A stretch of 38,155 nt of DNA, from contig CAZIVB010000002.1 in NCBI GenBank assembly GCA_964542565.1, forward strand, positions 1 through 38,155, given 5' to 3'. The position numbers and the translations under genes were made by a program. The notes beneath the pieces are model-generated. The model worked only from the letters and a program-made list of their open reading frames with translations. It was not told the origin of the DNA and ran no database searches. The DNA comes from an uncultured Hyphomicrobiales bacterium. Its GTDB lineage: Bacteria > Pseudomonadota > Alphaproteobacteria > Rhizobiales > BM303. This document shows positions 14,467 through 35,612 of the stretch, in pieces (the stretch's first letter is position 1; the number at the start of each line of letters is the position of its first letter).

Positions 14467-14573
14467 GTAAAAATCTAACACAAGAGGGATATATTCCTAC
14501 AACCAATAGGGGTATGTATCTCAGGGGTCCCATATGGATCCGTGTATCAGTCAGGCGAGGAGGAGCAATAGTC

Positions 14574-14966
14574 ATGAATGGCAGGGGAAAACAAACGCAA
14601 ATCGGCCGCAACCAGGAACAAAAGGCAATCCCCGTATTGGGAGATATGCAGGCGATGGCCTTGCAGCGGCAGATCGAAAAAAGTGTCTCCAGCGCCTTCC
14701 ATGTTCCAGAACGCGAGTTGCGCGCCCGCACCCGCCGCAAGGCCCATACCGCTTTTGCGCGCCAGGTGGCGATGTATCTGGCCCATGTCGGCTGCGGCAT
14801 GAGCTACAGCGAGGTTGGCCGCCTTTTCGGCCGCGACCGCACCACGGCGGCCCATGCCTGCCGCCTCATCGAGGACCGGCGCGACGATCCGGGGCTTGAT
14901 CTTTCGCTCGATCATCTCGAACAGGCGGTTCGCCACTGGGCCGACCGCCGCATCATGCACTCTTGA
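14574..14966 (+). CDS. DnaA-domain-IV-like HTH protein (GafY-like / N-terminal half of GafA-type GTA activator)
   Basis: RRKAHTAFARQVAMYLAHVGCGMSYSEVGRLFGRDRTTAAHACRLIEDRR resembles the DnaA C-terminal DNA-binding domain. ATG 14574 is preceded by GAGGAGGAG. The track start at 14514 lacks an RBS. Confidence 0.7.
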   Translation: MNGRGKQTQIGRNQEQKAIPVLGDMQAMALQRQIEKSVSSAFHVPERELRARTRRKAHTAFARQVAMYLAHVGCGMSYSEVGRLFGRDRTTAAHACRLIEDRRDDPGLDLSLDHLEQAVRHWADRRIMHS

Positions 14967-14977
14967 GGGAGAAGAAG

Positions 14978-15886
14978 ATGGCCCGCGCAAAACCATATCA
15001 ACCGGTCAACCGCGAAATAAATCGCGAAGCCCGGCGGATTTTCAGATTGCTTGTCAAACCCGGGCGCTTTCTCGCCAGACTGGAAGGAAAAGACGGCCAA
15101 TTTGGCGTCCTCAGCAGGAGAACCCGCAATTGCCGGGCCTCGGTCATCACGACAAGGGCTTTTGTTGACGCCTTCATCGCAAAAGGCTGGATCAGCGCTG
15201 CATCCGGAGACGGATGGGTGCTGAACGATGCCGGCGCTGCGTGGCTGCGTCGCATACAGGCCGCCGAGGACCCCTTTCTCGCCCAGCACCGCCTGAACGC
15301 GGTCCGGACGATCGAAGCCGCCGATGGCGCGCTTGAGATTTTACCGGTGAATGAAGGCGAGGATCCGCTCGGCTGGCTGCGGGCGCGCAAGGGAAGGGGC
15401 GGCAAGCCGCTGCTCGGCAGCGCCCAGCTGGAGGCGGGTTTGCGCCTTCGCCGTGATTTTACCCATGGGCATTTCACCCCGCGCATGACGGCAAGCTGGC
15501 AGCAAGCCGGACAGGGCCGCAAGGGCAGGCGAAACCGGGCGGGCGGCGGCGTTGAGCTGAGTGACGCCGCCCTCGCCGCGCGTCAGCGTTTCCGCAAAAG
15601 CCTTGCGGCGGTGGGGCCGGAACTCTCGGGCGTACTGGTGGATATCTGCTGTTTTTTAACCGGGCTGGAGGATGCGGAAAAAATCAATGGCTGGCCGCAG
15701 CGTTCCGGCAAGCTGGTGCTGCAAATGGCCCTGAGCGCCCTTGCGCGCCACTATGGCCTGATATCGGATCAGGGCTCCGGCCGGCGAAATCCGGTGCGGC
15801 ACTGGGGGGCGGAGGATTACCGCCCGCATTTTGACGCCGATGCGGCGGGGGCTCAGGACGAAAGCGCCTTGCGCGCCTCATCCTGA
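14978..15886 (+). CDS. DUF6456-like protein (GafZ-like / C-terminal half of GafA-type GTA activator)
   Basis: Conserved-looking blocks: EDPLGWLRARKG..GKPLL, QLEAGLRLRRDF, AARQRF, GPELSGVLVDICCFLTGLE, GWPQRSGKLVLQMAL..LARHYG. ATG 14978 follows a GAGGGAG RBS and lies 11 nt after the upstream stop. Confidence 0.65.
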   Translation: MARAKPYQPVNREINREARRIFRLLVKPGRFLARLEGKDGQFGVLSRRTRNCRASVITTRAFVDAFIAKGWISAASGDGWVLNDAGAAWLRRIQAAEDPFLAQHRLNAVRTIEAADGALEILPVNEGEDPLGWLRARKGRGGKPLLGSAQLEAGLRLRRDFTHGHFTPRMTASWQQAGQGRKGRRNRAGGGVELSDAALAARQRFRKSLAAVGPELSGVLVDICCFLTGLEDAEKINGWPQRSGKLVLQMALSALARHYGLISDQGSGRRNPVRHWGAEDYRPHFDADAAGAQDESALRASS

Positions 15887-19508: not shown

Positions 19509-19712
19509 ATGGGTATAGTGCTTCAGTTTCAATCCCTTCCGCCAAGCCTGAGGCGGAGCATGTCGCAATTGCACAACCAGATCAGATCGGGCAAGGGCAA
19601 GAAGGCGGAAATCGTTATTTTTCCCGGCACCCGCCACGAGCACGGCTTTTCGCAAAAAGACATGCATCAAACCAGCGCCCATTGCCGGATCGGTGAGGGG
19701 CCGGCCGAGTAA
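19509..19712 (+). CDS. small hypothetical protein (67 aa)
   Basis: ATG 19509 sits 5 nt after GGAGG. MGIVLQFQ...KAEIVIFPGTRHEHGF contains a (A)E-I-V-I-FPG-x-R motif that I recall from small conserved alphaproteobacterial ORFs. This is unverified. Confidence 0.4.
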   Translation: MGIVLQFQSLPPSLRRSMSQLHNQIRSGKGKKAEIVIFPGTRHEHGFSQKDMHQTSAHCRIGEGPAE

Positions 19713-19746
19713 ACCAATTTATTTATTTTCTATCAGGGCAGGGCAG

Positions 19747-20499
19747 ATGAAATCTGTATTCTGGATAGCGCTTTTGGGCGCCGGAGTCTCTGCCTGTTCA
19801 GGGACCGGAGATTTTGGCCGCAAGCCCTATTCGGTTCTTGACGATAAAATCATTCCCGCTTTCGCCAAAGGCGTAAGGCAAGGCGGCGGCGGGCCGGTTT
19901 CCTGGTATCCGCTAACCTCCGCCGAGCGCCGGATGCGCCAGTTATCCGATACACTGACAACCCCATATGGCCGGCCGCTTCTTCCGGAGCCCGCGAGCAA
20001 CCGTACCGGGCGCGCCGGACCGCTCGCCAACACAATCACCCGGAATGCGCCGCAAAAGTATCTTTTACGCCTGAAACGCGAGAAATTTGCCAGCGGAGAG
20101 GCCCGCATCGGGTTTATTGAAAAGCATATCCAGCAAGACCAATGGCAGTTCAGGAACTTCACAACACAGCTCTGGCGTGTGATTGCAGCGGATAAAAAAC
20201 GCCTTGCCGCGCTCTCCAGCATGCGGGACAAGCGCCGTGAGGATTTGGATAATACGCTTGGAAGGGTGGCGGAAAACCGCTCGATTGCGCGTGAAACCCT
20301 GCGCGCTCTTGCCCTGCGTATGCGTGGATATGACAAGGCGCTCCGCCTGACGCAGTTGCAATACCCCGATATATCAATAGACAAGACCGGTGCGATACTG
20401 ATTGAACTCAAATCGCAAGCGGACAAAACCGCTGCCCGAGCACGGCCATACCTCAGTAAAGGCAGACGCCGCGATGGCAGGGGACCGGTTGCTCTTTAA
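19747..20499 (+). CDS. hypothetical lipoprotein
   Basis: MKSVFWIALLGAGVSAC is a lipobox (L-x-x-C type) signal. The rest is Arg/Lys-rich and helical-looking with no family recognised. The track start at 19693 lacks a signal-peptide context. Confidence 0.6.
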   Translation: MKSVFWIALLGAGVSACSGTGDFGRKPYSVLDDKIIPAFAKGVRQGGGGPVSWYPLTSAERRMRQLSDTLTTPYGRPLLPEPASNRTGRAGPLANTITRNAPQKYLLRLKREKFASGEARIGFIEKHIQQDQWQFRNFTTQLWRVIAADKKRLAALSSMRDKRREDLDNTLGRVAENRSIARETLRALALRMRGYDKALRLTQLQYPDISIDKTGAILIELKSQADKTAARARPYLSKGRRRDGRGPVAL

Positions 20500-20514: not shown

Positions 20515-21636
20515 TCAGAACGTCAAAACTTCGGTAACTACGCCATTAATCCGCGTGGTCATGGTTACCTTGCCGCCGATTTTTTCGGTGATAATTTCAA
20601 TTGTGTTGCCATTGGCGTCTTTATATTTCTGTACTTTTCTGGCGGTTTGCGCCGGGCTGACGGGCGGCGCTGCCGATGCCGCCACTTGCAGTATATTCGC
20701 CATGGCCTCAAGATTGCCAAGCAACACCCCCACGATTTTCCCGCTGGATTTGATATTCATATACAAGAACAATGTGGGCGCTATGGGCGACGATAAAATG
20801 ACGCTGTAGGTTTGTTGTTTTTTCAAATACCAGTTTTCTCTGAAGGTTTTTATGATCTCGGGGCGCAAATCAACAAGTAAGCCGGCATGGCGGCTGTAAG
20901 ACGCCAGTTTCTTTTTGTCCTTGATGATCGCATCATATTTCACTTTGGCAAAAGCGCCGGACAAAGCCGGTCCGCTATTGTCTTTGGCGATAGAATTGAC
21001 CGCCAGTTCCAGTCTTGCTCTCATACGCAGCTTGACGCGCAAGAGATCAGAGGCGCTCTCGGCATTGTTCAACAAAAACCAGGACGTATATTCGCGGATG
21101 TCCGTGTCCATCATCCGAGCCCTCATATCCTTGTAATATGAGTAAATATTCCGCAGAATTCTGCCCCTTTGCCGCAGCCAGACAGGGATAACGGACTCTC
21201 TGGCCAGGATGGATTGCGGCGTGAGCTCTCCCCGAACGCGCTCGCCCGATGCCAAATAAAAATTCTCTATCTTCCAGATTTGCGCCCCTTTTTTCCACTG
21301 CGTCAGCAACGCGCCATCGACCCAGGGATTAAAGTAAATAACATAAAAATCAGAGTTTCTCGTCTTGGGAACCAGCATGGAGAAGGCGAAAAAGTGACTT
21401 AGCTGCCGGTCTTTTCTGTCGAAGTAAGGTGCAATGGCCGCCTTCCACTTTGCCAGCGCATTCGGTACCATGAATTTGGCGGCGGCCACATCGTGACCTA
21501 TTGTCATCTCGTTGCGAAACCTCTCGAAAACACTCATTTTGAGTGTTTCCGAAAACGCGCTCCCGCCAGCAAGGAGAGCGGCAACAAACACAAATGCGGC
21601 AAGATTTTTGATAACTGTGTCTGTTTTCCCGGTCAT
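20515..21636 (-). CDS. signal-peptide protein P1 (373 aa), paralogue of 23275..24432; no recognised family
   Basis: ATG 21636 is preceded by an AGGAAG RBS, with signal-like NLAAFVFVAALLAGGSAFS. It shares full-length blocks with P2: VFERFR, LSHFFA, FY.IYFNPWVDG.LLTQWKK, FYLASGER.RG, SYYKDMRAR, LLRV.LRMRAR, and the C-terminal EIITEK.GGKVTMTTRING..TEVLTF. Confidence 0.8.
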   Translation of the reverse strand: MTGKTDTVIKNLAAFVFVAALLAGGSAFSETLKMSVFERFRNEMTIGHDVAAAKFMVPNALAKWKAAIAPYFDRKDRQLSHFFAFSMLVPKTRNSDFYVIYFNPWVDGALLTQWKKGAQIWKIENFYLASGERVRGELTPQSILARESVIPVWLRQRGRILRNIYSYYKDMRARMMDTDIREYTSWFLLNNAESASDLLRVKLRMRARLELAVNSIAKDNSGPALSGAFAKVKYDAIIKDKKKLASYSRHAGLLVDLRPEIIKTFRENWYLKKQQTYSVILSSPIAPTLFLYMNIKSSGKIVGVLLGNLEAMANILQVAASAAPPVSPAQTARKVQKYKDANGNTIEIITEKIGGKVTMTTRINGVVTEVLTF

Positions 21637-21679
21637 TAGCTTCTTCCTGCTCGTAAAATCCTGTTTATGAGTCCATGAC

Positions 21680-23071
21680 CTAAGGGGAATAAGCATCCAG
21701 GTAACTGGTATAGTAATCCCGGGCGACCTCCTTCACGCTGCCACTGGGAAAAGCGTCATACAGCAGTCCGGCGGCAACACCGCCGGTTAAAGCGCCTCCA
21801 ACGCCAAGCACAGGAACCGACAACACCCCCACGACCGCGCCCACTCCCCCGGTGGGCAATGCGGCTGACGCGGCGACGAGCGCCCCGGCGGCCACCCCGG
21901 CCTGTGCTCCAAGCAAGGACCCGATACTGATCGCCGCTGTTCTCATATATCTGTCAACACCCTGACTGTAGTCGCCAGAATTGGTCGCATACATCATATC
22001 CTGGGAAGCCCATGTAAGATTACCAATCGTCATTATGCCCCCAAGATCGCTGATTTGATTTCCAACCGCCCGGGAACCTCTGATGGTGTTCAAAAGGCTC
22101 GAAGTCCTTGCCGCTTCATTGGGAGAAATCGAGCTGATGATATCAAGGCCGCGCGCCCCTGCGAGCCCGCCGGGAATGCCATCGGTCAGATATCCCGAAA
22201 TAGTGTTCAACCCGCCCATTATTGTGTCAAATGTTGACGAATCCGGTCCTCCGGCGGCAACCGCTGCCGGAGAGGCCGGTTCCAATGCCGGAACAGATGG
22301 CGCCGGGGCCGGTCCCAATGCCGGAACAGATGGCGGCATGGCCGGCCCTGGAGTCGGAACCGATCCTGGCCGGGCCGGGGCTTTCGCCGGAGCCGGTGGT
22401 CCCGGGCCCACACTTCGCGGCGGAAATGGCGTATCGAAAAGACCCGGAGGGGCATCGGATCGACCCGATCCCCCCGGCGGCGGTGTTCCGCCGGGTCCTG
22501 TCACGATGGCGGGCGGCCGCGGCCTCGGGATAACATCGCGCGGCGGAAACGGAGTATCGAAGAGGCCGGGGGGAGAATCAGGGCCATCGGGTCTTGACGA
22601 TGCAGGCCCAGGCGATCCTGGCCCTGTGACCGGCCCCGTTCTTCGCGGGCCTGAAGGCCCTGTCCTCACAACCCGGGGCGGCCGGGAAGGAACCTTCCTG
22701 ACGCGCTTGATGCGCTTGACTCGCTTCACGCGTTTGATTTTTTTACGCTTTTTACGTTTGACTTTTTTAACGTTTTTGCGTTTGGCTTTAGCGCCCTTGC
22801 GTCCGGCCAGATAGGAATCGGCGTCTGGCGGAGCACTCCTGATTCTCTTGCGATGAGCGCGCAATCTGCGCAGTTTTTTTCCAAAATAATTCTTGCGGAC
22901 ACGTACACCGGCGACATCATCACTGCCGCCCCCGCCCTCGGCGCCGCCCCCGCCATGACCCTCGCTCGCATAGGAACCGGTCGCAAGAACCAGCACCCCG
23001 AAGCCGAAAATCAACCCGGCCAGTATAAATTTGCGGATACGACTGATACACGCCAATACCGGGATGCTCAT
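21680..23071 (-). CDS. secreted oligo-Gly / polybasic / proline-rich / glycine-zipper protein Q1 (463 aa)
   Basis: ATG 23071 is preceded by GGAGGG. The Sec-type signal is SRIRKFILAGLIFGFGVLVLATGSYA|SE. It is followed by GHGGGGAEGGGG, KRKNVKKVKRKKRKKIKRVKRVKRIKRVRKV, a ~170-aa Pro-rich region with internal repeats, and a Gly/Ala-rich hydrophobic C-terminus ending ...LLYDAF.... Confidence 0.75.
   Translation of the reverse strand: MSIPVLACISRIRKFILAGLIFGFGVLVLATGSYASEGHGGGGAEGGGGSDDVAGVRVRKNYFGKKLRRLRAHRKRIRSAPPDADSYLAGRKGAKAKRKNVKKVKRKKRKKIKRVKRVKRIKRVRKVPSRPPRVVRTGPSGPRRTGPVTGPGSPGPASSRPDGPDSPPGLFDTPFPPRDVIPRPRPPAIVTGPGGTPPPGGSGRSDAPPGLFDTPFPPRSVGPGPPAPAKAPARPGSVPTPGPAMPPSVPALGPAPAPSVPALEPASPAAVAAGGPDSSTFDTIMGGLNTISGYLTDGIPGGLAGARGLDIISSISPNEAARTSSLLNTIRGSRAVGNQISDLGGIMTIGNLTWASQDMMYATNSGDYSQGVDRYMRTAAISIGSLLGAQAGVAAGALVAASAALPTGGVGAVVGVLSVPVLGVGGALTGGVAAGLLYDAFPSGSVKEVARDYYTSYLDAYSP
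22276..22341. repeat. 2 x 33-nt tandem direct repeat inside Q1 (encodes PSVPAL(G/E)PA.. twice)
   Basis: Units 22276-22308 and 22309-22341 match at 29 of 33 positions by hand alignment. Confidence 0.8.
22699..22797. repeat. 9-nt periodic coding repeat (Lys/Arg-Lys/Arg-Val/Ile triplets) inside Q1
   Basis: GCGCTTGAT GCGCTTGAC TCGCTTCAC GCGTTTGAT ... encodes (I/V)KR repeats on the minus strand. Confidence 0.7.
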
Positions 23072-23112
23072 TACGACCCTCCCTGCTACGTCCATACGGT
23101 CATGGTGCCGCA

Positions 23113-23140
23113 ATAATAAACTATTTTGGCAATAAATCAA
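23113..23140 (-). promoter_or_regulatory. putative sigma70-type promoter for the Q1-P1 cassette
   Basis: The minus strand reads TTGATT-N16-TATTAT (-35 at 23140-23135, -10 at 23118-23113), ~40 nt upstream of the Q1 start, in a visibly AT-rich stretch. Confidence 0.3.
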
Positions 23141-23227
23141 TCTGTCCGGCACCGGTTAAACCCGGCAGGATACAGAGCACCCTTCTAAAAAAAACGCGGG
23201 TTTTCGGATAAAACGATGCGGTGAAAC

Positions 23228-23273
23228 AAAAAAACACCGCCGCCGCCCGGTTACTGAAAAAAGCACACCGGTG
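23228..23273 (-). terminator. weak terminator-like element after P2
   Basis: On the minus strand CACCG...CGGTG (5-bp stem, long GC-rich loop) is followed by T7 (23234-23228), immediately after the P2 stop. Confidence 0.25.
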
Positions 23274-23274
23274 G

Positions 23275-24432
23275 TCAGAACGTCAAAACTTCGGTAATTA
23301 CGCCATTGATCCGCGTTGTCATCGTCACCTTGCCGCCGCGTTTCTCGGTAATGATTTCGACCCTCTCGCCCTTGGCATTGGTGTATGTCTGCACTTTTCT
23401 TGCCGGTTGAGTAGGGGGCGCGCCAATCGCTGAAGCCGCCGGTTTGGCGTAGCGTACCGTCGAGGCGGACTGGGGCAGCGCGCTGGCCATGGATTCCAGA
23501 TCATTCAGCCCGGCGTTTCTTATCCGGCCGGTTGCGCCGACATCCATAAGGATAAAGAATCGCGGTGCAACCGGAGACGATATGACGAGGCTGTAAACAC
23601 CGTTGTTGTAGAACACCCAGTTTTGCCGCAAGGTTTTGATAATATCGGGCGTCAGTTTAACAAGCAAGGAGGCGTCCTTGCTGTAGGAAGACAATGCAGC
23701 GGTATCGCGTGTCAGCAAATCATATTTGAGTTTGGAAATGGCGCCGGTCAAAAGCGCGCCGCCCTTGTCCTTGGCAAAAAACCCGGCATTCATAACCACT
23801 CTTGCCCTCATCCGCAGCATCACGCGCAAAAGATCGGCCTTTCTTTCGATATCATTCAGTGAAAACCAGCTCTGGTACTGTTCAACTGTTTTATAGACCA
23901 GACGCGCCCGCATATCCTTGTAATAGGACAGGATATTCTGCACGAAACCGCCCTTTTGCCACATCCATGCCGGAGGAATATTGCTGTTTGTTATCACCGC
24001 TTGCGGCGTGGCCTGACCTCGCAGCCGCTCACCTGACGCGAGGTAAAACCGCTCTATCTTCCAGCTTTCAGCTTCCTTTTTCCACTGGGTCAGCAAGACG
24101 CCGTCAACCCACGGATTGAAATATATTGCATAAAAATCAGCGCCCTTGACCTTGGGAACAATCATGGCGAGCGCGAAAAAATGGCTCAACTCCTTGTCCC
24201 CGCCGGTAAAGTAAGGCAGGGTTCCGTTATTCCAGTTGGCAAGCGCAGCCGGGTTCATATATCTGGCGGCGGTGGTTCGGGGCGAAAAAGCCATTTCGAT
24301 CCGGAACCGCTCAAAGACATTCACCTTCCCCACATCTGCCTGGGCGGGCCCGATCGCATAACACGTGACAACAAGCATGAAAGCTCCCAAAAGCCCGGCC
24401 GCCGTAACTCGTTTCTCGATCATTGTCTTCAT
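23275..24432 (-). CDS. signal-peptide protein P2 (385 aa), paralogue of 20515..21636
   Basis: I prefer the start at ATG 24432 (MKTMIEKRVTAAGLLGAFMLVVTCYAIGPAQA signal). It shares conserved blocks with P1 along its whole length. Confidence 0.8.
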   Translation of the reverse strand: MKTMIEKRVTAAGLLGAFMLVVTCYAIGPAQADVGKVNVFERFRIEMAFSPRTTAARYMNPAALANWNNGTLPYFTGGDKELSHFFALAMIVPKVKGADFYAIYFNPWVDGVLLTQWKKEAESWKIERFYLASGERLRGQATPQAVITNSNIPPAWMWQKGGFVQNILSYYKDMRARLVYKTVEQYQSWFSLNDIERKADLLRVMLRMRARVVMNAGFFAKDKGGALLTGAISKLKYDLLTRDTAALSSYSKDASLLVKLTPDIIKTLRQNWVFYNNGVYSLVISSPVAPRFFILMDVGATGRIRNAGLNDLESMASALPQSASTVRYAKPAASAIGAPPTQPARKVQTYTNAKGERVEIITEKRGGKVTMTTRINGVITEVLTF

Positions 24433-24474
24433 CCTGTCCTGAGGGCCCGCTCTGGCCTGATCAACCCGCACACC

Positions 24475-25539
24475 CTAATAGGCGTATTGCTGCTGATAAA
24501 CGCCTGTAGTCGGCTCCTTCACGTCCGTGTTTTTAAAAGCATCATATCCCGCGCCAAAAACGGCGTCTCCGACATACGAGCCGAGCGTCTTCGCGGCGAT
24601 ATGCGACAGCCCCCCGGTTTCCGGTGCAAGGGGCGCCAGCAGGGCTTGAGCAAGCGTCGCCCCCAAAGAGGCCCCAAGTGATTTGAACGCCGATTTGGCG
24701 GCGCTGTCCGCCACATTCCCGGCGCCTCCGTCCTTTTGCGCTGCCCGCCCTCCGCTCAGCAGGACATTGAAGATGCTGTGAGCCAGACCAAGTTTGCCGG
24801 CCTTCTTGCCCGGAAGCCCGTTGAGCAGATGCCCCATGCCGTTGTTTACAAACGACAGATCAGGGGGAGGGCCGGAGGGCGGGGGCTGAAACCCGGGGAT
24901 AAGCGGCCCTCCGCCAAATCCGGGTGGAAGCAGCGGGCGCTCGCCGCGCGCCGCGCGGGCATCGGCGGGTGATTTGTAAGACGGCCCCGCCGGGCCAATC
25001 GTCGAGCCATACCGGTCCCCAGGCCGCCGTGGCTTGAGGGAAGGGAAGAATTTCGATGCCGCCGGACTATGCACGGCCGGCACATAGGGCGCCGGGGGCG
25101 CCGGGGGCGTGTAAAGAGTGGGCGGCGGCAGCGCCGTGGTTCCGCTCTGGACAGTCCCGGGCGGACTGGCCCCCGGATAGCCGGTTCCGTAAACAGGCAC
25201 GGGAACATTCGACGGCTGCATCAACGGCAGCTTGTAAACGCTGGAGGAAGGATAAGGATTGACGCGTCTCTTCCTCGCCTTTCTGACTTTTTTCCGTCTC
25301 TTGTTCTTGTAGTACACCCGGCCGGAACGCCTTGAAGGCCGGACATATCTCCGCCGTGAGGAAGGCTTCTTTTTCACCATCCTGTTTCTGAGGTTTTCAA
25401 GGCTGTTGCCGCCGCCGCCGCCGCCGCCGCAACATGCAGCGGCGTCCGTTGCAAAAGCCGCCGCCATGAAGCTGGCGAGAACCCCCGTCAATACAACAAC
25501 GCCGATAGATTTGAAATAAGCTGAAAACGGGATGACCAT
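24475..25539 (-). CDS. secreted oligo-Gly / polybasic / proline-rich protein Q2 (354 aa), architectural paralogue of Q1
   Basis: ATG 25539 is preceded by GGGAGAG. The signal is SIGVVVLTGVLASFMAAAFA|TD. It is followed by CCGGGGGGG, KKKPSSRRRYVRPSRRSGRVYYKNKRRKKVRKARKRR, a Pro-rich middle and a Gly/Ala-rich C-terminus with ...GAGYDAF.... Confidence 0.75.
   Translation of the reverse strand: MVIPFSAYFKSIGVVVLTGVLASFMAAAFATDAAACCGGGGGGGNSLENLRNRMVKKKPSSRRRYVRPSRRSGRVYYKNKRRKKVRKARKRRVNPYPSSSVYKLPLMQPSNVPVPVYGTGYPGASPPGTVQSGTTALPPPTLYTPPAPPAPYVPAVHSPAASKFFPSLKPRRPGDRYGSTIGPAGPSYKSPADARAARGERPLLPPGFGGGPLIPGFQPPPSGPPPDLSFVNNGMGHLLNGLPGKKAGKLGLAHSIFNVLLSGGRAAQKDGGAGNVADSAAKSAFKSLGASLGATLAQALLAPLAPETGGLSHIAAKTLGSYVGDAVFGAGYDAFKNTDVKEPTTGVYQQQYAY
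25408..25430. repeat. (GCC)7 trinucleotide repeat, encodes Gly7 of Q2
   Basis: Seven uninterrupted GCC units plus GC, read directly from the sequence. The repeat is in frame. Confidence 0.9.
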
Positions 25540-25612: not shown

Positions 25613-26146
25613 TCAGTGAGACATTTCGGCGCATCTGAATTCGCCAAGCCTGGCGCGGAGCCTTTGTTCGTAAACCCTGAAGGGCCGGAAGGCCCGCAGA
25701 ACAATAAGTCCGCTCACGCTGGCATCCTGGATAATCAGCGTCTTTTCATCCGCCTCGATATCGCGCTCCTTGGTGTCGATAATCAGATCGATTTTCTTAA
25801 ACACCTGATAAGAATCATTTAAGGCAAACCGGTTCCTTCCCCTGGTGTCATAAACCGCTATTGACCAGTAATCCCCCGTGAGCGGTCCGGTAAAGCGCAC
25901 CGGAGCCTGTCTTGCGTCATAGCGGCAGACGAGGATTTCCATATCCGGGTTTTCTCTGGCAAAAAGCGTCTTTTGACCCGGGGCCGGCGTAAATCTGGCG
26001 AGGGAGTTGACACCAAGAGAGGAGCGAGCGTTTGCGCTGGCGCTTTTGGGCGCAAAAGCGGGCAGGGAGATGATAGTGACGATATGCACCAGGGCGGCCA
26101 GAAGGCAAACGGCAACGCTCCAGAACATGAAACGCACAATCAGCAT
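25613..26146 (-). CDS. small membrane-anchored DUF1254-like protein
   Basis: 177 aa with an N-terminal TM (FWSVAVCLLAALVHIVTIISLPAF) and a ...DYWSIAVYD... block. The start has an AGGAG RBS and overlaps the upstream stop by 7 nt. Confidence 0.6.
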   Translation of the reverse strand: MLIVRFMFWSVAVCLLAALVHIVTIISLPAFAPKSASANARSSLGVNSLARFTPAPGQKTLFARENPDMEILVCRYDARQAPVRFTGPLTGDYWSIAVYDTRGRNRFALNDSYQVFKKIDLIIDTKERDIEADEKTLIIQDASVSGLIVLRAFRPFRVYEQRLRARLGEFRCAEMSH

Positions 26147-26712
26147 TTTGTTCTCCTGATCGTTGGCAGAGGCGTACGGGCGGGATCGGAGACATAGGTC
26201 CGCGAGGGGTTGTAAAGCCGCAAAATCAGCTGGCGCCTCCCGTCCTCGCCGCCGGGCAGCCAGTTCCCCGGACGCGCTTCGGGCGAAAGCACCAGATGGA
26301 TCGTGTCTTTGCCGCTGCGAATGATGTTTTCACTGTTAAAACCATATCTCCTCGCCGGGTTGCGGATAAAATTGCCGCTTTCATCGTAAAGCGACAGCGA
26401 CCATCTGCTGGCGTCGATCACTTTGCCATCCAGGGAATATGTGCAGCGCGCATCAAGCTTGCGCCCCTGATCGTCCGCGGCGGCGAAAAAATACATCACC
26501 TCGAGCGCCTTGGCCGGAAGCATGCCGCTGCGGATAAAATGAGCAATTGTATAGGGATCGGAATCAGGAGCCCCGGCGTTGCGGCGCAGCACCCATGGGC
26601 CGTATTTCAACCTGAAAAAACCGTGCTCGTCTTCCAGCGCATACCAGGCCGAACCAATACCCAGAACTGTGCCGAGGATCAAAAACACAGCATATTTATA
26701 AAATGCGCTCAA
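26140..26712 (-). CDS. small membrane-anchored DUF1214-like protein
   Basis: 190 aa with an N-terminal TM (YAVFLILGTVLGIGSAWYAL) and D.QGRKLDARCTYSLDG....RWSLSLYD, which resembles the DUF1214 core. Confidence 0.6.
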   Translation of the reverse strand: MSAFYKYAVFLILGTVLGIGSAWYALEDEHGFFRLKYGPWVLRRNAGAPDSDPYTIAHFIRSGMLPAKALEVMYFFAAADDQGRKLDARCTYSLDGKVIDASRWSLSLYDESGNFIRNPARRYGFNSENIIRSGKDTIHLVLSPEARPGNWLPGGEDGRRQLILRLYNPSRTYVSDPARTPLPTIRRTKC

Positions 26713-29911: not shown

Positions 29912-30442
29912 ATGAAATCCAAAACCCCCGCCGACTGGCGAAAGGTGCGTGAAGCCTATTGTAACACCGCCATGCCCGTGCGGGATATCTGTGCCCGGTT
30001 TTCGGTCAGCGAAACATCTGTGTACCGTCATATAAAGCTTGAGAACTGGCCCCGGCGAAGCGAAACCAGGCGCTCCGGCGCGGCAAACAAAACCAAACCC
30101 GATAAGATGACATCAGAAGCCGCTGACATGGTTTCGCGTCTCTCGGGCGTATTCCTAAAACAATTGCGCGAGGCCGAGGCCGCCGCGAACGCCCCCGGGG
30201 CAAGCGCCGCGGAGCGCGAGCGCGCCGGCCGGGCGCTCAGCGTATTGTGGAAAAACTATGAAAAACTGAAAGAGCATGAAGAGATGCAGACCGTGGACGA
30301 CAGTAAAACCGACACCGGAAAACCGGCCGGATGGCAAAGCGGCGAGGAGGAGCGCCTGCGTAAGGAAATTTATAAGCGCCTCACTCGCATGTTGCAAAAA
30401 CGGCGAACTGAACGCGCTGCTAAAAAAACTAAGCCTGAGTGA
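29912..30442 (+). CDS. GTA g1-like small terminase candidate (HTH protein)
   Basis: 176 aa. The N-terminal HTH (VRDICARFSVSETSVYRHIK), the charged coiled-coil-like C-terminus, and the position immediately upstream of TerL all fit a small terminase. Confidence 0.6.
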   Translation: MKSKTPADWRKVREAYCNTAMPVRDICARFSVSETSVYRHIKLENWPRRSETRRSGAANKTKPDKMTSEAADMVSRLSGVFLKQLREAEAAANAPGASAAERERAGRALSVLWKNYEKLKEHEEMQTVDDSKTDTGKPAGWQSGEEERLRKEIYKRLTRMLQKRRTERAAKKTKPE

Positions 30443-31682
30443 TCTGGATTTTCTCATCCATGACTGGCAGCTCTGGGCGCGTGATGACCAGTTGCCGCCG
30501 CCAGGCGACTGGACCACCTGGCTGTTGCTGGGCGGGCGCGGCTCGGGCAAGACCCGGGCCGGGGCGGAATGGGTCCGCATGCTGGCAACGGGTTCCTGGC
30601 CTTATGAAAAGCTGGGGGCCCAGCGTATCGCCCTTGTGGCCGAGACCATGGCCGATGCCCGCGATGTGATGGTTGAGGGCGAATCGGGTCTTCTGGCCAT
30701 CCATGCCGATCATGAGCGCCCCGACTACATATCCTCGCGCCGCCGTCTGGAATGGAAAAACGGCGCTGTCGCCTATCTGTTTTCGGCTGAAGATCCCGAT
30801 AGCCTGCGCGGCCACCAGTTTACCGCCGCCTGGTCGGACGAGTTGGCCAAGTGGCGCTATCCGCAAGCCACATGGGACATGCTGCAATTTGCCCTGCGGC
30901 TGGGGGCGCGCCCGCGCCAGATAGTGACCACAACCCCGCGCCCCATCGCGCTCTTGAAGGATTTGCTGGCCCGCGATGATGTCATAACCGACCGCGCCAC
31001 AACCAGCTGCAATGCCGATAATCTCGCCCCGGCCTTTTTTGCCGCTGTCATCCACCGCTATGAAGGCACCCGCCTTGGCCGCCAGGAGATGATGGCCGAA
31101 ATCCTGGACGATAATCCGGACGCCTTATGGCGGCGCGATCTGCTGGAGCGGGTCACCAAAAAGGGTCATCCGCCGCTGGAACGCATTGTCGTTGCCGTTG
31201 ACCCGCCGGTCAGCCGCGGCAAGGGGGCCGATGCCTGCGGGATCATCGCGGCGGGCCTTGCCTCTGACGGCATGGCCTATGTGCTTGAAGATGCCAGCAT
31301 ACAGGGGCTGCGCCCGCGTGACTGGGCGGCCCATGCGATCGGCATATACAGGAAATACGGCGCCGATTGCCTGATCGCCGAGGTCAATCAGGGCGGCGAA
31401 ATGGTGCGCGATGTGTTGAACCAGATCGATGAAACCCTGAGCTATCGCCCGGTCCACGCCAAACGCGGCAAATGGCTGCGCGCCGAGCCGGTGGCCATGC
31501 TCTACGAGCAGGGCTGGGTTCGCCATGCCGGCGCGATGCCCGAACTTGAAGATGAAATGTGCGCCTTTACCGCCGATGGCCGCGCCAACGGCCACAGCCC
31601 CGACCGCCTTGACGCCCTCGTCTGGGCGCTGACGGAACTCAAACTCACCCGCAGCGCCGCCCCGCGCGTGCGCTCAATCTAG
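30276..31682 (+). CDS. GTA/phage terminase large subunit (g2); start uncertain
   Basis: Conserved from ...LSDLDFLIHDWQLWARDDQLPP, with Walker A GGRGSGKTRAGAEWV and nuclease-domain blocks downstream. The only canonical start in this frame is ATG 30276, 167 nt inside the upstream ORF. Confidence 0.85.
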   Translation: MKRCRPWTTVKPTPENRPDGKAARRSACVRKFISASLACCKNGELNALLKKLSLSDLDFLIHDWQLWARDDQLPPPGDWTTWLLLGGRGSGKTRAGAEWVRMLATGSWPYEKLGAQRIALVAETMADARDVMVEGESGLLAIHADHERPDYISSRRRLEWKNGAVAYLFSAEDPDSLRGHQFTAAWSDELAKWRYPQATWDMLQFALRLGARPRQIVTTTPRPIALLKDLLARDDVITDRATTSCNADNLAPAFFAAVIHRYEGTRLGRQEMMAEILDDNPDALWRRDLLERVTKKGHPPLERIVVAVDPPVSRGKGADACGIIAAGLASDGMAYVLEDASIQGLRPRDWAAHAIGIYRKYGADCLIAEVNQGGEMVRDVLNQIDETLSYRPVHAKRGKWLRAEPVAMLYEQGWVRHAGAMPELEDEMCAFTADGRANGHSPDRLDALVWALTELKLTRSAAPRVRSI

Positions 31683-31707
31683 ATACACCTGGCAGGAGGG
31701 AAAGGTT

Positions 31708-32895
31708 TTGCTTTATCAACGCCTTATTGACTGGATTCGCCCCGCATCCAGCGAAACCAAACAAAGCGCCACCGCGCCTCTGATCGCCCTGAATGCCCAT
31801 GGCCGGCCGGTCTGGACACCGCGCAACTATACGGCGCTGGCCAAAGAAGGCTTCATGCGCAATCCGGTGGCCTATCGCTGTGTGCGCATGATTGCCGAAG
31901 CCGCTGCTTCCATCCCCTTTACCCTGCGCGAAGGGGCAGGCGAACTGGACCGGCACCCGCTGCTTGATCTGCTGAAAAAGCCAAACCCGGTGACGGGCGG
32001 GGCCGAGTTTTTTGAAGACTGGTACAGCTATCTGCAAATCGCCGGCAATGCCTATTTCGAGGCGGTTTCGCTGGAGAGTGAAATACGCGAGCTTTATGTC
32101 CTGCGCCCCGACCGGGTCAAGGTGATCCCCGGCCCCGAAGGCTGGCCGTCCGCTTATGAATATTCCGCCGGTGGCCGTTCCGTCCGCTTCGCGCAGGATA
32201 CCCTAAATGGCATCGCGCCCATCTACCATATGGCCCTGTTTCACCCCGACAGCGATCATTATGGCATGAGCCCGCTTGAAGCGGCCGCCTGCGCCATCGA
32301 TATCCACAATGCCGCCGGAGCCTGGAACAAGGCGCTTCTCGACAACTCCGCCCGCCCCTCCGGCGCTCTGGTTTATCAGGGCAGGGGGGGGAACTCCAAT
32401 CTGAGCGAAGACCAGTTCGCCCGGCTGAAAGCCGAGTTGGAAGGCGCTTTTCAGGGCATGAAAAACGCCGGCCGTCCCATGTTGCTCGAAGGCGGTCTCG
32501 ACTGGAAATCCATGGGCTATTCCCCGCGTGAAATGGACTTTATCGACGCCAAGCACACCGCCGCGCGTGATATCGCCCTGGCCTTTGGCGTCCCGCCCAT
32601 GCTGCTGGGCATCCCCGGTGACAACACCTTTTCAAATTATGCCGAAGCCAACCGCAATTTCTGGCGTCAGACCATATTGCCGCTTGTTGCCAAAACCGCA
32701 AACGCCCTGACCAACTGGATAGGCCCGGCCTATGGGAACGATCTGCATCTTGGCTTCAACCCGGACCGGATCGAAGCGTTAAGGCTTGAGCGTGAAGCCT
32801 TGTGGAAACGCATTGGCGCGGCCGATTTTCTGACCCCGGACGAAAAGCGCGCCGCGATCGGTTACGGCCCGCTTGATGAGGACAGCCCCGCATAA
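31708..32895 (+). CDS. HK97-family phage portal protein (GTA g3)
   Basis: 395 aa. The TTG start lies 7 nt after GGAGGG. YRCVRMIAEAAASIPF, GNAYFE, MSPLEAA and FGVPPMLLGIPGDNTFSNY are typical portal blocks. Confidence 0.9.
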   Translation: MLYQRLIDWIRPASSETKQSATAPLIALNAHGRPVWTPRNYTALAKEGFMRNPVAYRCVRMIAEAAASIPFTLREGAGELDRHPLLDLLKKPNPVTGGAEFFEDWYSYLQIAGNAYFEAVSLESEIRELYVLRPDRVKVIPGPEGWPSAYEYSAGGRSVRFAQDTLNGIAPIYHMALFHPDSDHYGMSPLEAAACAIDIHNAAGAWNKALLDNSARPSGALVYQGRGGNSNLSEDQFARLKAELEGAFQGMKNAGRPMLLEGGLDWKSMGYSPREMDFIDAKHTAARDIALAFGVPPMLLGIPGDNTFSNYAEANRNFWRQTILPLVAKTANALTNWIGPAYGNDLHLGFNPDRIEALRLEREALWKRIGAADFLTPDEKRAAIGYGPLDEDSPA

Positions 32896-33016
32896 TATCC
32901 GCCATTAACGAAAACAGCCGGAAGCCATTGCGAACATCGAAAATCCGCGACTGAGGCCCGATTGGTTTTTTTCCGTTTTCACCGGAATGACGGATTGGGT
33001 GAACCAAGGAGTTCCC

Positions 33017-33703
33017 ATGACAAAACAAACGACCGGCTCCCGCCGGGAGACCAAATTCCTCGCCGTCGATTTCAAGCAGATCGACGCCAAAGGCGTCTTT
33101 GAAGGTTATGCCAGCGTGTTCGGCAAAGAAGATCTTGGCCATGATATCATCATGCCCGGCGCTTTTCGCGGCTCTTTGAAAAAACGCGGCGCAAGCCAGA
33201 TCAAGATGCTTTTCCAGCATGATCCCAAAGAGCCGGTTGGCGTCTGGTCCCATATTGCCGAAGACGCAAGGGGCCTGTTCGTGCGCGGTCGTCTCAACAC
33301 CCAGGTGGCCCGCGCCCGCGAGATTTTAAGCCTGATGCGCGAAGGCGCGATTGACGGGCTGTCCATCGGCTTTCACACCCTGAAAGGGCGCACCGACCCC
33401 AAAACCGGCATACGCAAGCTGCGCGAGGTTGATCTGTGGGAAATCTCCATCGTCACCTTCCCCATGCAGCCCGGCGCCCGCATCCAGTCGGTCAAGCACC
33501 GCGGTGACCGGCTGCCCACAACCAGAGAATTCGAGTGCTGGCTCACGCGGGATGCTGGGCTGACGCGCCGCGAGGCCCGCACCGTCATCGGCAAGGGCTA
33601 CCGGGCAATAACCGCCGGGCGGGATGCCGCCGGATTGCCGCTACCTGCCCCCGCGCAACTTGCCCGAAAAATCCGGCAGGCGGCGCAGATTATCAATCCC
33701 TGA
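33017..33703 (+). CDS. HK97-family prohead protease (GTA g4)
   Basis: ATG 33017 follows an AAGGAG RBS. FEGYASVFG..D..HDII.PGAF, IKMLFQHD and GLSIGF are typical of the family. Confidence 0.9.
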   Translation: MTKQTTGSRRETKFLAVDFKQIDAKGVFEGYASVFGKEDLGHDIIMPGAFRGSLKKRGASQIKMLFQHDPKEPVGVWSHIAEDARGLFVRGRLNTQVARAREILSLMREGAIDGLSIGFHTLKGRTDPKTGIRKLREVDLWEISIVTFPMQPGARIQSVKHRGDRLPTTREFECWLTRDAGLTRREARTVIGKGYRAITAGRDAAGLPLPAPAQLARKIRQAAQIINP

Positions 33704-33720
33704 AAAACGAGGACATAACA

Positions 33721-34950
33721 ATGGACAATCTAACCAACCACACCGAACTCGGTGAAGCCTTTGACGAGTTCATGCAGGCTTTTGAAGCCTTCAGGCAAAC
33801 CAATGACGAGCGTCTGGCCCAGGTTGAAAAACATATGGCCACCGATGTCATCACCGGCGACAAGCTGGAGCGCATCAACCGCGCCATGGATGAACAAAAG
33901 CGCACCGTCGACAGCCTGACCCTGAAAGCCCGCCGCCCGGCGCTGGGATCTTCAGGCCGCGCCATCAGCGCTCATGCGCTGGAGCACCGCGCCGCCTGGA
34001 ATGACTATATGCGCAAGGGCGATGCGCGCAATTTGCAGGCGATTGAAGCCAAGGCGCTTTCCGTCGGCACTGACGCCGATGGCGGCTATACCGTGCCGGA
34101 GGAAACCGAAAGCCATATCGGCAAGCTGCTGAGTCAGGCCTCTCCCATCCGCGCCATTGCCGGCATCCGCCAGATTTCCGCTTCAACCTATAAAAAGCCC
34201 TTCGCCACCAGCGGCTTTTCCACCGGCTGGGTCGGCGAGACGGCGGCAAGGCCCGAAACCTCGACCCCGACCCTGGCCGAGCTTTCCTTCCCGGCCATGG
34301 AGCTTTACGCCATGCCCGCGGCAACCTCAGTGCTGCTTGAAGACAGCGCGGTTGACATAGAGCAATGGATTGCCGAAGAGGTGCAAAGCGCCTTTGCCGA
34401 GCAAGAAGGCGCCGCCTTCGTCAATGGCAACGGCACCTCCAAACCGCGCGGTTTCCTCAACTACACCAAGGTGGCGGACAGCTCCTGGAGCTGGGGCAAT
34501 CTGGGTTATGTGGTCTCCGGGGCCTCGGGCGCATTCGCCGCAACCGATCCTTCCGATGCCCTGATTGATCTGATTTATTCGGTCAAATCCGGCTATCGCG
34601 CCAATGCTCATTTCGTCATGAACCGCGCCACCCAGTCGGAAATCCGCAAGCTCAAGGACGCGGACGGCAATTATCTCTGGCAGCCGCCGGTGCAGGCCGG
34701 CACGGGCGCGACCTTGATGAATGTGCCGATTGCCGAGGCTGAGGACATGCCCGATATGGCCGCCGACAGCTTCTCCATCGCCTTTGGCGATTTTGGCCGT
34801 GGCTATCTGATCGTGGACCGGGTCGGCGTGCGGGTGCTGCGCGATCCCTTCTCCTCCAAGCCCTATGTGCTGTTCTACACCACCAAGCGCGTCGGCGGCG
34901 GGGTGCAGAATTTTGAAGCCATCAAGCTGATGAAATTCGGCACCGCCTAA
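33721..34950 (+). CDS. HK97-family major capsid protein (GTA g5)
   Basis: ATG 33721 follows GAGGA. It has an N-terminal coiled-coil (scaffold-like) region, then GTDADGGYTVPEE, FVNGNGTSKPRGFL and YRANAHFVMN. The track start at 33535 lies inside the protease gene. Confidence 0.9.
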   Translation: MDNLTNHTELGEAFDEFMQAFEAFRQTNDERLAQVEKHMATDVITGDKLERINRAMDEQKRTVDSLTLKARRPALGSSGRAISAHALEHRAAWNDYMRKGDARNLQAIEAKALSVGTDADGGYTVPEETESHIGKLLSQASPIRAIAGIRQISASTYKKPFATSGFSTGWVGETAARPETSTPTLAELSFPAMELYAMPAATSVLLEDSAVDIEQWIAEEVQSAFAEQEGAAFVNGNGTSKPRGFLNYTKVADSSWSWGNLGYVVSGASGAFAATDPSDALIDLIYSVKSGYRANAHFVMNRATQSEIRKLKDADGNYLWQPPVQAGTGATLMNVPIAEAEDMPDMAADSFSIAFGDFGRGYLIVDRVGVRVLRDPFSSKPYVLFYTTKRVGGGVQNFEAIKLMKFGTA

Positions 34951-35033
34951 ACCTCTCCTTCTCCCCCGTGAACCTTGGCGGGGCGGGCGCTGCAACAGCG
35001 CACCGCCCCGTCCTTTTTGGGAAACCGTCCAAC

Positions 35034-35612
35034 ATGACCGCAATTCTCATCTCCGGCCCCGCTACCGAGCCGGTCACACTTGCCGAGGCCAGGGCGCATC
35101 TGCGCGTCGATACGGCCGATGAAGACACCCTGATCTCCTCGCTCATCACCGCGGCGCGCATCCATATCGAACTTGCCTGCTCCAAGGTGCTCATCACCCA
35201 GAGCTGGAAACTTTATTTTGACCGCTGGCCGTCAAAAAGCGTCATCGAAATCCCGCTCGCGCCGCTCCAGGGCGTAAGCGCCATAAGCATCTATGATGCG
35301 GATGATAACAGCGAGAGCATTGCCTCTTCCCGGTGGTATGCCGATACGGTATCGGTCCCCGGACGGCTCGTGCGCCGTTTTGGCTCTGTTTGGCCGGACC
35401 CGGCCCGCGCCGCCAATGGTATCGAAATTACCCTGAGCGCAGGCTACGGCGATACAGCTTCCGATGTGCCGCAAACCCTGCGGCAGGCTATTCTGCTGCT
35501 GGTTGCCCACTGGTTTGAAACCCGCGAGCCGGTTGTTCTGGGCGCGGCGGCCATATCCGTCCCCCTTGCCGTTGATGCCCTGATCGCGCCCGCAAAGGCG
35601 GTGCGGCTGTGA
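35034..35612 (+). CDS. phage gp6-like head-tail connector protein (GTA g6)
   Basis: EPVTLAEARAHLRVDTADEDTLISSLITAAR is the typical N-terminus of this family. I prefer the start at ATG 35034. Confidence 0.85.
   Translation: MTAILISGPATEPVTLAEARAHLRVDTADEDTLISSLITAARIHIELACSKVLITQSWKLYFDRWPSKSVIEIPLAPLQGVSAISIYDADDNSESIASSRWYADTVSVPGRLVRRFGSVWPDPARAANGIEITLSAGYGDTASDVPQTLRQAILLLVAHWFETREPVVLGAAAISVPLAVDALIAPAKAVRL

Follow-up and report, generated by a model that had tools for sequence, protein, structure and literature searches.

What do four consecutive genes of no recognizable family do downstream of a PBP1A gene in an uncultured Hyphomicrobiales bacterium? The genes lie on the minus strand of a 38,155-nt stretch of contig CAZIVB010000002.1 (assembly GCA_964542565.1; the whole stretch is hereafter called the window) and read Q2, P2, Q1, and P1. 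A sequence-only reading had taken them for a tandemly duplicated two-gene cassette, with a role in the cell envelope as the simplest guess and effector/partner logic (immunity or chaperone) as the alternative. By comparing the window with a set of fetched loci (L001–L029), we found that Q and P behave in evolution like a toxin and its immunity protein, and unlike a cell-wall accessory. On balance, the Q-P pair is probably the cassette of a polymorphic toxin-immunity-type system that has hitherto gone undescribed. Effector/partner logic is favored because one C-terminal domain is shared by different carriers, P adjacency is strict, the two partners co-diverge, and the body of Q2 has been replaced together with P2; a chaperone or anchor role is less likely. 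That the effector may be a toxin is suggested by the polymorphic-toxin features of the locus and by the glycine-zipper chemistry of the shared domain.

The two Q proteins had been described as alike in architecture more than in sequence. The architecture is indeed common to both, running from a signal peptide through oligo-Gly, a Lys/Arg block, and a Pro-rich stretch to a Gly/Ala-rich hydrophobic C-terminus. The second half of the description applies to BLASTP, which returned no significant similarity between Q1 and Q2 (E = 0.07, YDAF tail only), but not to hidden Markov models (HMMs), by which their C-terminal ~130 aa form one homologous domain, here termed Q-CT. When each protein was left out of the model in turn, the scores were 74.9 bits for Q1 (shuffle maximum 9.1 bits) and 43.3 bits for Q2 (shuffle maximum 10.8 bits). 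An HMM built from seven Sec-type Q C-termini alone matched the extreme C-termini of TpsA proteins, the exoproteins of two-partner secretion (TPS), at 40.2 and 22.9 bits, with 9.2 bits being the top score among 1000 composition-matched shuffles. In the reverse direction, an HMM made only from the C-termini of TpsA- and Flp-type carriers recovered Q1-CT at 44.3 bits and gave a non-significant 7.1 bits for Q2-CT, so that Q2 joins the family through the Sec-type members only.

Q-CT is kept across at least 16 distinct loci, TpsA proteins included, and occurs on four carrier types: a Sec signal followed by a disordered region, a TpsA protein with a TPS domain, a protein with a Flp-like leader, and a minimal Sec signal. 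The TpsA carriers have a TPS domain and a TpsB neighbor, and independent TpsB-TpsA-P-like operons are found at L014, L017, and L018; among P relatives, TpsB-TpsA operons accompany distant ones only (L010, L014, L017, L018). P0014, a distant relative of P (E = 2e-42), directly follows a TpsB-TpsA pair whose TpsA terminates in a Gly-zipper and AYDKW…VVEV, resembling LLYDAF…VKEV of Q1. The Flp-type carrier (L029, 1103-2914) is a 603-aa protein that ends in Q-CT and is followed by a P-like gene; its N-terminus scores 23 bits against Flp_Fap, below the 32-bit cut-off. A tetratricopeptide repeat (TPR) protein is encoded after this P-like gene, with a divergent FHA/YscD-like gene alongside, and from these sequences the locus may represent a Tad-type, contact-dependent delivery context. 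The minimal carrier, with a Sec signal alone, is located downstream of a P-like gene at a contig end (L025).

The chemistry of the domain is distinctive. Residues 380-437 of Q1 make up a continuous zipper in which [GAS]xxx[GAS]xxx[GAS] matches seven times in succession and in register, with a Kyte-Doolittle hydrophobicity of up to 2.1; the LLYDAF…VKEV tail follows. The TpsA C-termini are dense in GxxxG motifs, and the tail motif (Y/F)D-x-(F/W)…V-x-E is conserved. Scans of Q1 and Q2 gave no Pfam match at E ≤ 1 and no NCBIfam match, and a sequence-profile search of the PDB with Q-CT gave nothing meaningful, its sole match being a weak one to the Gly-rich segment of a tape-measure protein (E = 0.003). 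Word-indexed homology searches with the Q-CT alignment or full-length Q1 were swamped by low-complexity candidates and yielded only a fragment of the window itself and the L001 orthologue.

Q-CT is strictly paired with P. Across 2,686 six-frame segments of all fetched loci (275 kb), 24 of the 25 Q-CT matches form the C-terminal domain of a gene that directly precedes a P-like open reading frame (ORF) on the same strand, and every upstream partner examined in the loci of the close P family has Q architecture. A survey of related genomes for presence, copy number, and synteny, suggested on the basis of the original reading, revealed single or double cassettes in several contexts. The gene order of the window (PBP1A, DUF1214, DUF1254-like, Q2, P2, Q1, P1) recurs in L001, and one further metagenome-assembled genome (MAG) has a single Q-P pair at its PBP1A locus (L008) and a second between guaB and a methyltransferase gene (L005). 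The downstream, co-directional position next to PBP1A and the DUF1214/DUF1254 pair is therefore real and found in two related MAGs. The envelope role that had been tied to these neighbors is nevertheless not supported, because at least four unrelated contexts harbor the same cassette but no PBP1A. These include single cassettes between sulfotransferase and NMO genes (L002) and between a TPR gene and PPK2 (L003), as well as L005, L007/L009, the TpsA operons, and the locus with the Flp-like leader. The P family is missing from nearly all Hyphomicrobiales genomes scanned; the cassette is mobile and patchily distributed.

Q-CT and P also diverge together. The Mantel correlation between their distances is r = 0.61, a value reached by 0 of 10,000 permutations, and rises to r = 0.75 for Sec-type pairs alone (8 of 10,000 permutations). 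In the comparison between the window and L001, sliding nucleotide identity is ~90-95% in the flanks and across Q1-P1, drops to 35-63% between ~25320 and ~23385, and recovers at the P2 C-terminal module. The breakpoints fall at about codon 70 of Q2, just past the leader and oligo-Gly, and at about codon 345 of P2, where a conserved β-module begins; accordingly, the first 62 alignment columns of Q2 (61 aligned codons) are 90% identical and the rest 30%. Synonymous divergence (dS) from L001 is 1.49 for Q2 and 1.56 for P2, compared with ~0.2 for the flanks and Q1/P1. This pattern indicates that the body of Q2 and P2 were exchanged as a unit for an ancient allele. The allele carried by L001 resembles that of L008 (73% identity, Q-CT and P alike). 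Beside this wholesale swap, PBP1A, DUF1214, and the DUF1254-like gene are under strong purifying selection (ω ~0.1).

These comparisons also recast the supposed tandem duplication. P1 and P2 are full-length paralogues as described, with 52% identity end to end (BLASTP E = 5e-142), and they contain every sequence block that had been quoted as well as a near-identical C-terminal module. In their core, however, they are 50% identical, no closer than alleles of unrelated loci, and P1 is nearer to proteins of L002 and L019 (57-58%) than to P2. Because of this, and because synonymous sites are near saturation (proportion of synonymous differences, pS, 0.63-0.66), the locus is best described as an array of two old, distinct cassettes rather than a tandem duplication. 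From the pS values we reject the possibility that P1 and P2 are similar through a recent duplication in tandem or through gene conversion. The C-terminal module has a proportion of nonsynonymous differences (pN) of 0.12 with pS 0.46, compared with pN 0.33 and pS 0.66 for the P core; judged from these values, it is kept by purifying selection and not by gene conversion.

We then consider what P is. Both paralogues start with a signal peptide (…GPAQA/D in P2, …GGSAFS/E in P1). As far as the curated libraries go, P and Q indeed have no recognizable family: Pfam and NCBIfam returned nothing for any of the four proteins, and the profile searches proposed to place them in characterized families gave no Pfam, NCBIfam, or meaningful PDB match; a PDB sequence-profile search with the P superfamily was likewise empty. 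The close P family is rare, comprising 9 clusters among 5.8 billion proteins; in a scan of 185,579 species genomes it was found at 5 loci, each in a Hyphomicrobiales or alphaproteobacterial MAG. An exhaustive profile search extended this to 102 representatives at E ≤ 0.001, most of which are 330-370 aa long and match the core of P but not its C-terminal module. Ankyrin repeats are present in 7 of 60 scanned relatives and TPRs in 1 of 60, the core itself being without a Pfam family.

An AlphaFold2 model of P2 from a 60-sequence alignment is confident, with a predicted local distance difference test score (pLDDT) of 90.8 and a predicted TM-score (pTM) of 0.77. It consists of a signal helix, two α+β modules (helices plus a 4-stranded sheet) with a helical join, a disordered linker, and a 4-strand β-meander. 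Foldseek searches of this model against PDB and BFVD gave no match at E < 0.007. The best local superpositions are NTF2-like, including Tai3, an immunity protein of a type VI secretion system (T6SS), with a probability of 0.97 and a TM-score of 0.53 but E = 0.36, in a search without any match at E < 0.02; we treat this model-based resemblance as a lead only.

Two observations concern variant P-like genes. At the PBP1A locus of L008, the P-like gene (9947-11059) has an out-of-frame tail, …EKFSATRIPTETGLKSSGENAAAR, in place of the RKVQ…EVLTF module, owing either to a frameshift or to an error of assembly. The remotest P-like relatives (L026, L027, L028) match only the N-terminal half, and the genes ahead of them, ORFs of ~436 aa (L027, L028) and 165 aa (L026), have no family match and no Q-CT; to judge from their sequences, these P-like proteins may pair with other partner or toxin types.

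The remainder of Q is a disordered carrier. Q2 has a Sec-type signal peptide (…TDAAA/CC), oligo-Gly, a Lys/Arg block, and a Pro-rich disordered region ahead of Q-CT. Q1 follows the same plan after its signal peptide (…GSYA/SE), with a very strong Lys/Arg block (43 K/R vs 5 D/E in residues 41-160). Short tandem motifs in this region differ between the alleles of Q1, L002, L001, L008, and L005. GLFDTPFPPR occurs twice in the Pro-rich region of Q1 (residues 169 and 210) and three times in L002, RWVKxKxGPVPEYxWG has two matches in L008 and one in Q2 of L001, and FKYPAIHAA is present in three copies in the Q protein of L005; such allele-specific motifs may be receptor- or partner-binding epitopes. 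At the DNA level, the region of Q1 contains two tandem repeats, one of 33 nt (2.2 copies) in its Pro-rich segment at 22274-22345 and one of 24 nt (2.5 copies) in the Lys/Arg block at 22731-22789. In-frame indels between the window and L001 fall at these repeats, suggesting that their length varies by slippage. Against the L001 orthologue, Q1 has a ratio of nonsynonymous to synonymous substitution (dN/dS) of 0.245 at a dS of 0.21, equal to that of the flanking PBP1A, DUF1214, and DUF1254-like genes, and we conclude from this that Q1 is a real gene.

How might such a pair work? We propose that Q is made with its Sec signal peptide and exported to the periplasm. Q-CT would be the business end, comprising an amphipathic helical region, a long Gly/Ala-zipper hydrophobic hairpin, and the (Y/F)D-x-(F/W)…V-x-E tail. 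By analogy with glycine-zipper effectors, it could insert from the periplasm into the inner membrane and depolarize it. Because of its cleavable-looking signal peptide, P is expected where periplasm-acting pore formers attack; as a soluble periplasmic protein it would bind and sequester its cognate Q-CT and thereby protect the producer and its kin. The oligo-Gly/polybasic/Pro-rich disordered region would be the delivery part, mediating outer-membrane binding or uptake as the counterpart of the TPS domain and β-helix of the TpsA-borne versions. In this scheme we infer toxicity, pore formation, neutralization by P, and the exit of Q from the producer.

Polymorphic toxins provide the closest precedent in genetic organization. 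Their catalog (Zhang, Aravind et al. 2012, PMC3482391) describes N-terminal delivery modules that can be interchanged, a domain at the extreme C-terminus that varies, an obligate and co-varying downstream partner, joint replacement of C-terminus and partner between close relatives, and a patchy, mobile distribution. It also records single toxin domains on signal-peptide-only carriers (‘T2SS’, for type II secretion system) or on carriers of the type V secretion system (T5SS)/TPS kind, and NTF2-fold immunity proteins fused to ankyrin repeats (PMC3482391). Measured against the defining features of such systems (Zhang et al. 2012; Jamet & Nassif 2015), Q-P shares a variable C-terminal domain on interchangeable trafficking modules, a partner gene immediately downstream, recombination of the C-terminus and partner together between close relatives, patchiness, and ankyrin-fused partner relatives. 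It differs in that neither Q-CT nor P matches a catalogued Tox/Ntox or Imm family, and in being without a pre-toxin/releasing-peptidase domain, RHS or filamentous-hemagglutinin repeats, and orphan cassettes. P is also unusually large, conserved, and periplasmic for a partner of this type, and the oligo-Gly/polybasic/Pro-rich disordered carrier of Q sets it apart from the catalogued polymorphic toxins.

Glycine-zipper effectors (Tse4/Tsi4, Ssp6/Sip6, Tse5, CdzC/D-CdzI, EsxX-ExiAB/ExiCD, TelE) offer the chemical parallel. Like Q, they have a C-terminal hydrophobic GxxxG/[GAS]xxx[GAS] zipper that is likely the active element, and they are expected to act on the cytoplasmic membrane from its periplasmic or outer side; Tse4 and Ssp6 show toxicity only when in the periplasm (PMC11630599). 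CdzC/D, from Caulobacter (PMC5380434), are alphaproteobacterial, as is Q. A soluble ExiAB complex neutralizes EsxX by holding its glycine zipper in a groove (PMC12744356), which is the kind of sequestration proposed here for P. There is, however, no detectable sequence relationship between these effectors and Q, they are delivered by T6SS, type VII, or type I secretion systems whereas Q has a Sec signal only, and CdzI and many pore-former immunity proteins reside in the inner membrane whereas P is soluble.

Contact-dependent inhibition (CDI) toxins, which include an ionophoric CdiA-CT family (PMC11630599), have the gene order cdiBAI, mirrored by TpsB, TpsA-Q-CT, and P-like in the distant relatives. 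In a CDI-like scheme, the C-terminus would wait in the producer periplasm, where a periplasmic partner could guard it. The Q-CT-bearing TpsA proteins differ from CdiA in being only ~800 aa long and without VENN/pre-toxin, receptor-binding, and FHA-2 regions; no VENN/pre-toxin motif was found on reading Q1, Q2, and the related TpsA sequences. CDI ionophore immunity proteins are small membrane proteins, unlike P. We rejected CDI membership for the pairs of the window, as Q has no TPS domain and the window encodes no ShlB/POTRA_2 protein. Pore-forming colicins and pyocins resemble Q-P in their Gly-rich disordered N-terminal region with short repeats, C-terminal membrane-active domain, dedicated protection gene, and high allele diversity. 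Unlike Q, colicins have no signal peptide, are released via lysis proteins, and have no extreme polybasic block, and their immunity proteins, unlike P, lie in the inner membrane and are often encoded on the opposite strand. Colicin membership of Q was likewise rejected, there being no pore-forming-domain homology and no Pfam match at E ≤ 1. A TonB/TolA/LpoB-type role was set aside in view of the absence of a Pfam C-terminal domain and of a PBP1A linkage conserved across loci.

Several observations weigh against the toxin-immunity reading. No outer-membrane export route for Q is encoded nearby in the window, and neither a pre-toxin or cleavage motif nor orphan C-terminus/immunity remnants were seen. 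The hydrophobicity of the Q2 C-terminus is only moderate, and the AlphaFold2 model of Q1-CT is all-helical but unreliable (pLDDT 45). The Pfam models Gly-zipper_Omp/YMGG/OmpA, MccV, Bacteriocin_IIc, and DUF6861 scored at best 7-18.5 bits against Q-CT, with cut-offs of 24-28. On the side of P, the Tai3/NTF2 likeness is statistically weak. Typical immunity proteins are small and fast-evolving, whereas P is large (~350 aa mature), carries near-invariant polar residues superfamily-wide (N-P-W-x-D, G-E-x-x-R, R…R), and has 45-58% identity among alleles vs 20-35% for Q-CT. This conservation pattern would fit a chaperone or an enzyme as well.

Among the rival explanations, one that we regard as unlikely is that Q is a non-toxic envelope or surface protein whose zipper C-terminus serves membrane anchoring or self-assembly, with P as a dedicated periplasmic chaperone or assembly factor that shields the hairpin; in that case the diversity would stem from selection, by phage or predators for instance, on a protein exposed at the surface. 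The greater size, better conservation, and more numerous invariant polar residues of P compared with typical immunity proteins suit such a role, and purifying selection on its C-terminal module across alleles suggests docking to a common cellular partner. Moreover, TpsA proteins are frequently adhesins, no export or delivery machinery for Q is nearby, and any obligate binding pair explains adjacency and co-divergence equally well. It accounts poorly for the fact that, in genomes otherwise ~93% identical, an ancient allele has taken the place of the Q2 body and P2 together, a classic signature of conflict systems. The same applies to the finding that a single domain always forms the very C-terminus of its carriers, which represent three or more unrelated kinds of delivery module, and to the extremely patchy distribution, multiple insertion contexts, and stacking of two different alleles in one locus. 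That P is instead an enzyme processing or modifying the Q C-terminus, which would make the pair a substrate and its maturation factor, seems quite improbable. P has no sequence or structure match to enzyme families, its distant relatives are fused to protein-binding repeats (ankyrin, TPR) and not to catalytic domains, and allele swapping would be left unexplained, although NTF2-like folds include cyclases, isomerases, and hydrolases, a constellation of N106, P107, W108, D110, G134, E135, R138, R207, and R211 is kept in ~60 sequences at ~20% identity, and the conserved Q-CT tail could serve as a recognition site.

The synteny survey largely refutes the view that the cassettes assist PBP1A and DUF1214/DUF1254 in the biology of the cell wall or growth pole, and we consider this explanation very improbable. 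Proline-rich periplasm-spanning regulators of PBPs do exist (LpoB), and the cassettes are co-directional with, and immediately downstream of, the PBP1A-DUF1214-DUF1254 genes in the window, L001, and L008; the cassette nevertheless occurs without PBP1A at the other loci listed above and is absent from nearly all Hyphomicrobiales genomes scanned, and the strong constraint on PBP1A, DUF1214, and DUF1254 contrasts with the wholesale swap of the adjacent Q2-P2. Finally, the Q ORFs might be chance open frames in GC-rich, low-complexity DNA, which also harbors long opposite-strand ORFs such as 22083-22814 (+). The constraint on Q1, the conservation of Q-CT across at least 16 distinct loci, and the conserved ribosome-binding sites (RBSs) and spacing refute this and render it practically negligible.

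Within the toxin-immunity interpretation, we also raise a more specific and more speculative version, which is unlikely as a whole: the Q proteins would be Sec-exported, self-delivering bacteriocins of a new class. By analogy with colicins, the disordered region would act like a translocation domain, binding the target outer membrane electrostatically and threading through it without a secretion apparatus, upon which a new glycine-zipper warhead would depolarize the inner membrane. P would then represent a new fold family, that of immunity proteins which sequester the zipper in the periplasm and serve TpsA- and Tad/Flp-linked toxins too. As for novelty, no description of the Q-CT and P families was found in the libraries or in the literature searched; the kind of system is known, while Q-CT, P, and the polybasic/Pro-rich carrier with its allele-specific motifs are not described.

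The layout of the locus is summarized in Table 1. All four ORFs are present at the coordinates and on the strand originally reported, with Q-stop to P-start gaps of 42 nt (Q2-P2) and 43 nt (Q1-P1). The GGAG-type RBS assigned to every start is roughly right, the actual sequences being GGGAG (Q2), GGGAGG (Q1), AGGA (P2), and AGGAAG (P1). The DUF1254-like gene and Q2 are separated by 73 nt. Between P2 and Q1 (interval 23113-23250), three T-rich runs are followed downstream by a sigma-70-like TTGATT-16-TATTAT match at 23140-23113, for which reason Q1-P1 may have a promoter of its own; the match is one of consensus only and such matches occur in the region at chance level, promoter and terminator matches across it being no more frequent than expected by chance. 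Part of this spacer (23161-23250) cannot be aligned with L001.

Table 1. Positions of the Q-P cassettes and their parts in the window.
Feature	Positions	Strand	Description and basis
Q2	24475..25539	-	354 aa ORF; RBS GGGAG; leave-one-out HMM 43.3 bits
P2	23275..24432	-	385 aa ORF; AlphaFold2 model and family alignments
Q1	21680..23071	-	463 aa ORF; dN/dS 0.245 vs L001
P1	20515..21636	-	373 aa ORF; P2 paralogue; dN/dS 0.27 vs L001
Q-CT domain of Q2	24478..24882	-	~residues 220-354, with …GAGYDAFKNTDVKE… toward the end; HMM domain coordinates, alignment
Q-CT domain of Q1	21683..22120	-	~residues 318-463; HMM domain coordinates
P2 C-terminal β-meander module RKVQ…EIITEKRGGKVTMTTRINGVITEVLTF	23278..23400	-	model secondary structure, pN/pS, identity to L001
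P1 C-terminal β-meander module, equivalent to that of P2	20518..20640	-	P1-P2 alignments, pN/pS
Allele-swapped segment, Q2 ~codon 70 to P2 ~codon 345	23385..25320	-	sliding nucleotide identity, dS
P2-Q1 spacer, 203 nt	23072..23274	-	T-rich runs, then sigma-70-like consensus match

On one side of the cassettes, a lipoprotein-like ORF (19693-20499, +; lipobox LGAGVSAC) is convergent on P1; it has no family match and is conserved beside the cassette site of L001 and L008. On the other side, right after PBP1A, a small membrane-anchored DUF1214 protein and a DUF1254-like protein are encoded at 25613-26146 and 26140-26712 (-), with a 7-nt overlap; the DUF1254-like assignment is below threshold (20.6 vs 22.2 bits). 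The PBP1A-DUF1214-DUF1254-like trio is kept in L001 and L008 whatever the number of cassettes. The rest of the window holds housekeeping genes, a histidine kinase, and a head module like that of a gene transfer agent (GTA). The latter, just past PBP1A at 30276-35612 (+), is GTA- or prophage-like, with a large terminase, portal, S78 prohead protease, major capsid, and gp6-type connector, and also adjoins the cassette locus in L001. Overlapping genes at 14514-14966 and 14963-15886 (+) encode a DnaA-C-type helix-turn-helix protein and a DUF6456 protein, a pair that presumably resembles a split GTA activator (GafY/GafZ-like). Scans of viral contigs for P and for DUF1214 found nothing, and we therefore see no phage or GTA link.

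For genome annotation, the tempting link to PBP1A and polar growth is removed as unsupported. If the toxin-immunity reading is true, two uncatalogued families would be added to the inventory of bacterial warfare, the glycine-zipper Q-CT and a ~300-aa two-module periplasmic partner that has no solved or annotated relative. One warhead would then be carried on a TPS exoprotein, on a protein with a Flp-like leader, and on a polybasic/Pro-rich disordered Sec-only carrier, raising the question of how a Sec-only Q exits its producer and crosses the outer membrane of its target. Searches of genomes for more such toxins could use the P-like superfamily (~100 representatives, counted at 50% identity) as a marker.

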